Assembly (NCBI RefSeq): GCF_037042905.1
Contig: NC_087251.1
Span: 11,844,001 to 11,908,000, forward strand
Direction: 5' to 3'
DNA from: Lytechinus pictus
Lineage: Eukaryota
DNA: 64,000 nt
Positions within the stretch are counted from its first letter, which is position 1; each line of letters starts with the position of its first letter. The translations under genes were made by a program, and so were the position numbers. Positions 49,901-52,900 of the stretch are shown in pieces. The notes below the pieces were generated by a model. It saw only the letters and a program-made list of their open reading frames with translations. It made no database searches and was not told the DNA's origin.

Positions 49901-52900
49901 GAACCTTAAATAAAAATTAACTGAGGTTATATGAGCTTGCATGGCTATACATTTTCTAAGAAGAAATTACCTCAAATTATTTTCCTATTGATTTATCTGC
50001 TCTATGCCAAATGTATATAATGTGTCACCTGCTGCTACTGTCCACCAAGTTCACAGTTGGGAGATTCCACAGGACAAAAACATGTATGCTTTTCATAGGC
50101 ATAATTGCTGTCATGTGAGTGACTGGGTGAACAGGGGCCTGTTGCATAAAAGTTACTATTATAGTAAATCTTTCTTGGAATCCTTGAATTTAATTGGCTG
50201 TTAAGCTTTGTTGCCATGGTAGTTACCGTTGGATGGCAAAGTAACCATAATAGTAGAGCGTTGTGGCCCAGTGGATTAGTCTTCTGACTTTGAAACAGAG
50301 GGTCGTGGGTTCGATTCCCAGCCATGGCGTAATTTCCTTCAGCAAGAAATTTATCCACATTGTGCTGCACTCAACCCAGGTGAGGTGAATGGGTACCCCG
50401 CAGGAATAATTCCTTGAATGCATGAGCGCTGAAAGGCAGCTCAGGCTAAAGCCGGGGTAATAATAATAATAACATCGCGCCTTGGAATAGAATATTTCTA
50501 GATAGATGGCGCTATATAAATGCCTATTATTATAGTAACTTTTATGCAACGGGCCCCAGGTTGCAAATCAAACTAGCTTGATATCCCCCCTCCCAATATC
50601 CTGTTTAAATCTTTGTCTTTTATTCAACTAAACATGCTTATTTCTTAATAGCAATTGGGACGAGATGGAGCTGTGCCATTATCAAACAGTCTCAGCCTAT
50701 GTGAAAAGCCTCGCATCCAGTACCTCACCTCCAAGTCTAGGACTGACCCTACGTCCCATGACCCTTGCCCTTTCAGACATGGTCAGCTAGTGGTATGTAA
50801 GGTGTACCTAGGGAAAAGCTTGCCTGCCCTGGATGTCACTACAGGGTATGTATTAGCCAACTTGTCTGCTTTACTTATTGACTATTGTGAAATTGAATTA
50901 AATAAAATAAAATAAGATGACGCATTAATCAATAATGAATAATGATAATGCCTTTGATTGTTCTGATGTATATTATTTTGATCTAGATTATCATATTGTT
51001 CATCAAATTAGAAATCTAGGACAATACCCAATTCACATCAAATTTCAAAGAGATTAAAAAACATTTTGCCTGAAAAGAAATGACTTAAATTTCATACAGA
51101 TAGAAAATCTAAATGAAACCTTTGTGCAATGTGTAACCTGTCTTGATCAAGCTAGTATCATATGCAGATTTTGCTTTTCAAAATTGTTATGTACATGTCA
51201 CTGAGAAAAACAGAATATCATGATGAATTTTGGAACAACAAAGTCCATGGAATTTGCCTTTAAGATACAAGGAACTGAGAGACTTTAAATTCAATTGATC
51301 TGTTATACTACTGTATATTTAAAGCCCCTTTCACAATTGGCGGTGCGACTGCTTACAACCATTGCAATTCTGTGCAACATATATTGTGACCAAGTGATCG
51401 CAGACAGTCGCACAAGCAATTGTGAAAGCCCCTTTAGATAACATACCCATCAAGTAGGTTAGTATTTTAACAATTGTCAAAGTATGTTTCATTGATTGTT
51501 ATTTTTTTGTAGCATCCACCAGAAGTTCTACCCCAACTGTGATTCAGTATTCAGACCAAAGTGTTTTTCTGGTGGTGTACAGGAGGAATCTCTGTGTGAA
51601 TGCTCCTCTAGACAGTGTGAATGGTTTGTCTTCAACAATGAGCTTGTCCTGCCAGAGTATGTCATTGATTTTGAGTATGTAACAAGGGTGAGTATGTGTG
51701 AACTGTGTTTATCTCTGTGTGAATGCTCCTTTAGACAGTGTGAATAGTTTGTCTTCAACAATGAACTTGTCCTGCCAGAGTTTGTCATTGATTTTGAGTA
51801 TGTTACAAGGTTGAGTATTATGTATGCATGAATTTTGTTTCTCTTTGTGTGAATGCTCCTTGAGGCAGTGTGAATGGTTTGTCTTCAACAATGAGCTTGT
51901 CCTGCCAGAGTATGTCATTGATTTTGAGTATGTAACAAGGTTGAGTATGTGTGAACTGTATTTATTTTTGTGTGAATGTTCCTCGAGGCAGGGTAAATGG
52001 TTTGTCTTCAACAATGAGCTTATCCTGCCAGAGTTTGTCATTGACTTTGAGTATGTAACAAGAGTAAGTATGTGTGAACTGTGTTTATCTTGGTGTGAAT
52101 GCTCCTCTATGCAGTGTGAATGGTTTGTCTTCAACAATAAACTCATCCTTCCAGAGTATGTCATTGATTTTTAGTATGTTACAAGGTTAGTATTATGTAT
52201 GTGTGAATTTTGTTTGAATGGTTCTCCTGCCTGTGTAAATGATTTTTTTTCCAGTCATGATCTCGTCTTATCTCTTTTCTGAGCGTGAGTGTGTGTGAAC
52301 ATCATTTTATGAATTCGATTGCTTTCACACCAGTTATGTCATTGATTTCAATATTTTACAAGTGAGAACATGTGTGAAGACAATTTAACTGTTAATCATG
52401 TATTCTTTGTATGAAAACCAATCTATGTAATGCAAGTACTTTATCTTTAATGGAAATCGTTTCTCATTGAATATTGTACAGTAGTTTGTCACAGGTATGG
52501 TTATAAGAGAAATCTGTTTCATATAAAAATTAAGTCTTGCAAGTATTTTCTTTTCCAATGAGAACTTTCCATGATTAAAAATGTTTTACAACTCATCAAT
52601 GTTCCATTATTTTTTGTCTCACCTGCATAGCAGAGTGAGACTATAGGCGCCGCTTTTCCGACGGTGACGGTGGCGGCGTCAACACCAAATCTTAACCGAA
52701 GGTTAAGTTTTTGAAATGACAGCATAACTTAGAAAGTATATAGACCTAGTTCATGAAACTTGGCCCTAAGGTTAATCACGTATTACTAAATATCCTGCCT
52801 GAGTTTCAGGTCACATGACCAAGGTAAAAGGTCATTTAGGGTCAATGAACTTAGACCATGTTGGGGGAATCAACATCAAAATCTTAACCTAAGGTTAAGT

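Follow-up and report, generated by a model that had tools for sequence, protein, structure and literature searches.

A tandem array of exon-intron-boundary units in LRRC9 of Lytechinus pictus, probably a neutral minisatellite

The end of one coding exon of LRRC9 is tandemly repeated in Lytechinus pictus. In the window, i.e. the whole 64,000-nt stretch of DNA analysed here, the repeat unit takes in the final 100 nt of exon 13 and the adjoining 23 nt of intron 13, and the array as assembled has about seven units, two decayed ones included. We consider it very probable that this array is an essentially neutral exon-intron-boundary minisatellite, or "mirage".

The host gene is LRRC9, judging from its identity to named LRRC9 proteins and from LRR blocks around a central ART-like region. 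The exon 13 peptide is identical at 58 of 58 residues to P0001, an LRRC9-like protein of Lytechinus variegatus, and most of the 36 homologue matches are named LRRC9. P0001, in which LRR Pfam matches were found, could be mapped on the window as 26 coding exons with 25 GT-AG introns, with few residue differences over the whole protein. The parts of the gene concerned are as follows (a slash in a motif marks the exon-intron border):

51513..51687, + strand: LRRC9 coding exon 13 (aa 585-642), which ends the ART-like domain; exact match to P0001; the X5 and X15 contigs align to 51512-51687
51688..51693, + strand: authentic intron 13 donor, AGG/GTGAGT, used in RNA; intron 51688-53831
53832..53971, + strand: LRRC9 exon 14, the acceptor partner, phase 0, placed by mapping of P0001

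The LRRC9 family carries a central ART-like domain, read as a probable pseudoenzyme, with a D-(5)-PEY-(2)-EFEY motif at the domain end (PMC7955679). It is this conserved motif region that the array unit encodes, here as EYVIDFEY (aa 632-639 of P0001); PMC7955679 treats the LRRC9 protein, not the array. A Pfam search with the exon 13 peptide returned 0 families and one with P0001 returned no PARP family; the repeat ORF weakly matched the final 26 positions of Pfam PARP, at an E of 0.0027 that falls short of the curated cut-off.

Tandem Repeats Finder delimited the array at 51588-52193, with a period of 123, 4.9 copies and 86% matches. The units are arranged head-to-tail, and unit 1 spans the authentic exon-intron boundary, the end of exon 13 (51687) lying inside it. 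Neither the acceptor nor the initial 75 nt of exon 13 belongs to the duplicated segment, which starts at 51588, compared with 51513 for the exon. Units 1 to 5 span 51588-52215 and are 85-97% identical over the 93 nt that begin with the first Cys codon and reach to the exon end; the two decayed units behind them each outscored all 1957 control windows and all 2000 shuffles:

51588..51710, + strand: unit 1, 123 nt (100 exon + 23 intron)
51711..51840, + strand: unit 2, 130 nt; TAG at 51745-51747; donor G+1>T; 7-nt spacer insertion in common with unit 5
51841..51963, + strand: unit 3, 123 nt; most similar to the exon (3/93 nt differ); open frame; donor G+1>T
51964..52086, + strand: unit 4, 123 nt; open frame; donor AGA/GTAAGT at 52064; internal donor-like AGG/GTAAAT at 51993
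52087..52215, + strand: unit 5, 129 nt; TAG at 52172-52174; shifted donor-like AAG/GTTAGT at 52186; alleles common to organism B array copies
about 52208..52300, + strand: decayed unit 6; 71/91 aligned letters identical to unit 1
about 52290..52385, + strand: decayed unit 7; 63/83 aligned letters identical to unit 1

The splice signal is thus reiterated along the array, reading AGG/GTGAGT in copy 1, AGG/TTGAGT in copies 2 and 3, AGA/GTAAGT in copy 4 and AGG/TTAGTA in copy 5: it is intact in copy 4, has G+1>T in copies 2, 3 and 5, and in copy 5 a GT is present in a shifted position. Weak donor remnants are found at 52285 and 52362, in the decayed part.

A preliminary description, made from the sequence without database searches, had derived the array from the 3' half of LRRC9 exon 13 and its donor, and this was borne out, together with its translation of the exon part of the unit. 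The unit lengths it gave, 123/130 bp, both occur, except that unit 5 measures 129 rather than 130 nt; its estimate of at least five copies holds for the five units listed, and the two decayed ones, reaching to 52385, had not been described. The stops it reported, TGG>TAG at 51745-51747 in copy 2 and GAG>TAG in copy 5, were both found again, and copies 3 and 4 are indeed open in one frame (stop-to-stop ORF 51815-52174, with an ATG at 51824). It had also read the donor states of copies 2, 3 and 4 correctly, but its position for the copy-4 donor was off by one, the site being at 52064-52069.

A search for echoes of all LRRC9 exons gave non-self matches at E 0.05 for 8 of 26 exons, longer than 25 nt only for exon 13; the echoes of the other exons are intron-edge matches of 15-25 nt. 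The exon-end echo is therefore not gene-wide but restricted to exon 13 of the 26. Tandem exon duplications give mutually exclusive or cassette exons and likewise place coding exon sequence in tandem within a gene. In the LRRC9 array, in contrast, the acceptor and first 75 nt are not duplicated, no unit amounts to a whole exon, and inclusion of a copy was not seen in three transcript-type runs (contigs and about 10 raw reads). An origin by duplication of the whole exon with its acceptor and donor was rejected, as the unit starts 75 nt inside the exon and the acceptors of the copies are weak.

Several other features of the window are worth recording. Intron 13 contains a second, younger tandem duplication at 52547-53245 (374 bp, 1.9 copies, 93%), which runs into a 163/192-bp repeat family; further arrays of this family lie at 10045-10901, 17618-18704 and 42556-43367. 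In intron 12, an element of about 120 bp with 36-nt inverted ends (51316-51440), which we take to be MITE-like, showed very high depth in all four aligned runs, RNA included, suggesting that it is a high-copy repeat. A protein kinase gene, presumably CDKL-like, has exons (GEGSYGVV...) on the minus strand at 8996-16142 and faces away from LRRC9; on the same strand, broken reverse-transcriptase frames at 22029-23169 belong, we assume from their motifs, to a LINE-type retrotransposon.

The copies have not evolved independently of one another. Units 2 to 5 differ from unit 1 at 5, 3, 9 and 9 of 93 nt, respectively, and divergence from unit 1 rises outward and then passes into the decayed units. 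Diagnostic variants are shuffled among the copies, as had been noted previously, with a TTT codon in copies 2 and 4 and the spacer insertion in copies 2 and 5. Among the five copies, 18 informative columns define 7 splits, and 15 of the 21 split pairs are incompatible with one tree, which argues for unequal exchange, as the preliminary description had proposed, or for conversion. The incompatible splits and the decayed distal units together conform to a concerted turnover that does not extend to the distal boundary. Two of the four extra copies carry stops and three of the four carry donor G+1>T, a change that may represent one event spread by exchange.

Half of the distinct changes from unit 1 (9/18) are synonymous, compared with 19-26% expected (p 0.003-0.027, depending on the transition weight). 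When two exon alleles of organism B (51645C and 51669C) and one majority allele are set aside, the count becomes 6/15 (p 0.05-0.18). The excess is best read as a sign that the copies derive from earlier alleles of the coding exon, rather than of selection acting on them. Coding selection was weighed and not adopted: stops occur in two of the copies, the near-invariant E620 is replaced by K in copy 4, and in 67% of 5000 simulations a neutral copy that had taken up 9 changes was still free of stops, so that an open frame needs no selection.

That the array exists independently of this assembly is evident from a DNA run (X13) of organism B, a close relative under a different label. One X13 contig of 153 nt contains the joint 51710>51588, i.e. 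it goes back 123 nt; a second fits 51600-51695 and then continues unlike the window, apparently breaking where a unit of the 130-nt type would. Both contigs carry G51640A and G51646A, which are the alleles of window copy 5 and of copies 4 and 5, respectively, and which are absent from organism B RNA (0/10 and 0/9 minus-mate reads). The contig of organism A shows one difference from the window in exon 12 and none in exon 13, and that of organism B differs at 6 of 273 nt and has the allele giving Ala554 of P0001; by these letters, the window would come from organism A, and organism B resembles L. variegatus. The presence in organism B of the 123-bp tandem junction and of the copy-4/5 alleles indicates that the array is no assembly artefact and that it probably predates the lineages of organisms A and B. 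The short X13 contigs confirm the tandem array and give no copy count. The preliminary description had allowed for long reads revealing a single copy; with a DNA contig from another organism spanning the tandem junction, the array must be regarded as real. None of the listed runs contained as much as half of the words searched for and none is DNA of the window's own organism, which would be in keeping with extra copies produced by assembly, but substitutions set the copies apart (their exon parts are 85-97% identical), and with the X13 contigs largely refuting it, this explanation is hardly credible. The word shares in the listed runs (0.11-0.18, compared with 0.17-0.21 expected for exon 13 alone) were not used as evidence.

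In two further sequences the array was not encountered. A metagenome scan, in which at least 595 stretches matched the pattern, yielded one confirmed locus, L001, the LRRC9 locus of a distant animal, where an intron at the same place (2239-2470, about 230 nt, following ...EYVTR, donor also GTGAGT) is free of repeats. The relative P0003, read through its donor, has no second unit in register. By comparison of these sequences, the position of the intron is old and the array is not.

Splice sites were scored with a matrix built from LRRC9's own introns. The real intron 13 donor scores 10.9, and the sites at 51993, 52064 and 52186 score 8.8, 8.1 and 8.0, respectively. Such values occur among real donors, of which 5-8 of 25 score lower. 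The real donor of LRRC9 intron 8 (46207-46215) and the copy-4 pseudo-donor have one 9-mer in common, AGA/GTAAGT, showing that the latter is usable in principle. The preliminary description went further in supposing that the copy-4 donor competes with the real one, and this is not supported, given the scores (8.1 vs 10.9) and the use of the first donor alone in all three transcript-type runs. In copy 5, an acceptor-like AG (5.7) directly abuts a good donor (8.0) at 52183-52191 (...ACAAG/GTTAGT), much in the manner of a recursive or proto-splice site; this acceptor-like AG is also present in copies 2 and 3, but with a poor donor. Internal-intron models with exonic donors at 51624 and 51657 gave 6 open combinations and were discarded on account of the weak donors (4.1 and 5.3).

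Four of the 24 listed runs were aligned to 50600-51710, i.e. to exon 12 and one unit, with copies 2-7 and exon 14 outside this stretch; at 85% likeness, reads originating in any of the copies are placed on unit 1, and a joint was listed only with at least 3 reads. In the X5 contig (organism A), exon 12 is joined to exon 13, which ends at 51687, and the contig continues for 519 nt. Organism B's X15 contig, which is spliced in spite of its label "DNA?", has the same joint and the same end, and continues for 593 nt. In the raw RNA run X24 (organism B), 21 reads lie on the exon 12-13 joint, and depth is 10 at 51669 and 0 at 51702-51710. The main transcript uses the most upstream donor, 51687, presumably with exon 14 as its partner. 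Read-through past 51687 into the array was found in none of the three transcript-type runs, at low power: 0 of about 10 raw X24 reads bounds the use of other donors only below about 26% by our arithmetic, and this for organism B, whose array may differ. The comparison of junctions at 51687 and at the copy-4 donor, recommended earlier, thus returned the first donor only, from about 10 raw reads. Separately, exon 12 in X24 (50697-50837) displays two well-separated haplotypes with linked differences at 50726-50752, pointing to pooled animals or high heterozygosity.

Minor or NMD-hidden use of the later donors may nevertheless occur. All five extensions of exon 13 that were tested stop at aa 662 of 1517, in agreement with the earlier statement that an extended exon meets the copy-2 stop, just behind the ART-like domain (domain end according to PMC7955679), and NMD would hide such RNAs. 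One could therefore suppose that leaky donors at 51993, 52064 and 52186 extend exon 13 in a minor share of transcripts, which then decay, the state of the array thereby tuning LRRC9 dose. The scores of all three sites (8.0-8.8) and the use of the copy-4 9-mer by intron 8 would permit this, and human CBS and 6-16 use two pseudo-donors (introduction of PMC1557585); however, the pseudo-sites in use in those genes are few, being the nearest in 6-16, whereas here the nearest two have lost GT, and in F7 pseudo-sites short of perfect consensus do not compete (PMC1557585). Moreover, 15-16 unused sites in the 21.3 kb of LRRC9 introns score as high as the later array donors, extension to 52064 would make an exon of 551 nt, and X5, X15 and X24 show no depth at 51702-51710. 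Leakage with an effect on dose is, in our view, unlikely.

Of 38 acceptor-donor pairs that could delimit a cassette, two give an open segment in frame, 51992-52063 (72 nt) and 51869-52063 (195 nt), each of them reaching to the copy-4 donor. Their acceptors score 3.0 (the best, with 5 of 25 real acceptors lower) and -1.6, compared with a median of 6.5 for real ones. The earlier idea that cryptic AGs could give cassette exons is thus sound as to frame, but the acceptors are weak and no go-back joint, as expected from a repeated exon, was seen in X5, X15 or X24 (about 10 raw reads, with rare forms dropped from contigs). The better candidate is:

51992..52063, + strand: candidate cassette exon, 72 nt, phase 0-0, from a weak CAG acceptor to the copy-4 donor; none seen in RNA

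In-frame inclusion of this copy-4 segment would fit the T>G change at 51992 that creates CAG/G, the termination of both open pairs at the one intact later donor and the mild synonymous excess in the copies. We hold it to be very unlikely, for besides the weakness of its acceptor and the missing go-back joint, a rival donor (51993) lies one base into the cassette, E620 would become K, a second LPEY-type motif is absent from all 36 homologues, and the open frame is of the kind expected in most neutral simulations. If true, it would double the conserved C-terminal motif in the ART-like domain of LRRC9. A broader proposal makes the array an old reservoir of exon ends, still exchanging sequence with the coding exon, in which copy 4 is either a nascent 72-nt cassette included at low level in some tissue or a spare exon end, equipped with its own donor, that one unequal crossover could turn into the real one; this is distinctly unlikely as well, and would, if correct, provide a cross-species-dated case of the birth of an exon and an intron from a mirage.

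The neutral minisatellite remains the best explanation, and its history can be pictured as follows: i) a local tandem duplication would have taken in the final 100 nt of exon 13 together with 23 nt of intron, and not the acceptor, as the anatomy indicates; ii) repeated unequal crossover or conversion would have expanded the units and mixed them, consistent with the mixing and the gradient observed; iii) units adjoining the exon would have been refreshed and distal ones left to decay, which the same gradient suggests; iv) the spliceosome would take the first donor and remove the whole array as intron 13, as it does in the major transcript, probably because only unit 1 follows a real acceptor (a reason taken from exon definition and the F7 experiments); v) any extension to a later donor would meet the stop present in unit 2 and presumably become an NMD target; and vi) the loss of GT in three copies, together with the copy-2 stop, would make stray use rarer and harmless. 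The copies would then make no product, and at most the array may trade alleles with the coding exon end. We find no sign of function in the array.

A literature search, of limited coverage, found no account of the LRRC9 locus in Lytechinus and, by title or abstract start, none of boundary-spanning repeats in sea urchins. The array belongs to the known class of exon-intron-boundary minisatellites: five of the six features listed for the class are present, the assignment being made on features other than copy-number variation. As it stands, it adds another case to the boundary-spanning repeats with additional donors that are ignored, and is of little consequence. What small merit it has lies in its long and mostly coding unit, in a clear gradient of age and in copies common to two related urchin lineages; these make it a tidy test case for how the first donor is chosen outside mammals and for sequence exchange of a coding exon with its copies in the intron.

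In mammals, intron 7 of human F7 contains a 37-bp VNTR, the first unit of which spans the boundary so that the donor is reiterated, and boundary-spanning repeats are also cited for lamin B2 (100-bp unit), PDGF (81 bp), CBS intron 13 and interferon-inducible 6-16 (PMC1557585). In F7, lamin B2 and PDGF the most upstream donor is in use, as in urchin LRRC9, and the downstream pseudo-donors of F7 do not compete (PMC1557585). The F7 unit, however, includes 4 exonic bases and its pseudo-donors are identical, whereas 100 of 123 bases of the urchin unit are coding exon and three of four copies have lost GT; and in contrast to CBS and 6-16, with their two pseudo-sites in use, none was seen used in the urchin array.

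A close likeness exists to the amphioxus mirages of Adh3 and of the globins BflGb6 and BflGb9, which are tandem units across an exon-intron boundary, with 3-6 units of 81-100% identity and globin units of 150-160 bp (PMC3087553). Many, not all, of their units keep the splice signal, the distal unit is outside homogenization and splicing is undisturbed; in BflGb9 it is the 3' boundary of the exon that is duplicated, like in the urchin array (PMC3087553). Long boundary-spanning units, decayed boundaries and undisturbed splicing are thus common to both, a likeness drawn on features other than length polymorphism and somatic instability; the urchin array differs in its unit of 123-130 bp and in having copies common to a differently labelled related organism. 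Mirages were proposed as a route to new exons and introns (PMC3087553), and if copy 4 were spliced in, the LRRC9 array would be an example of that model caught in the act.
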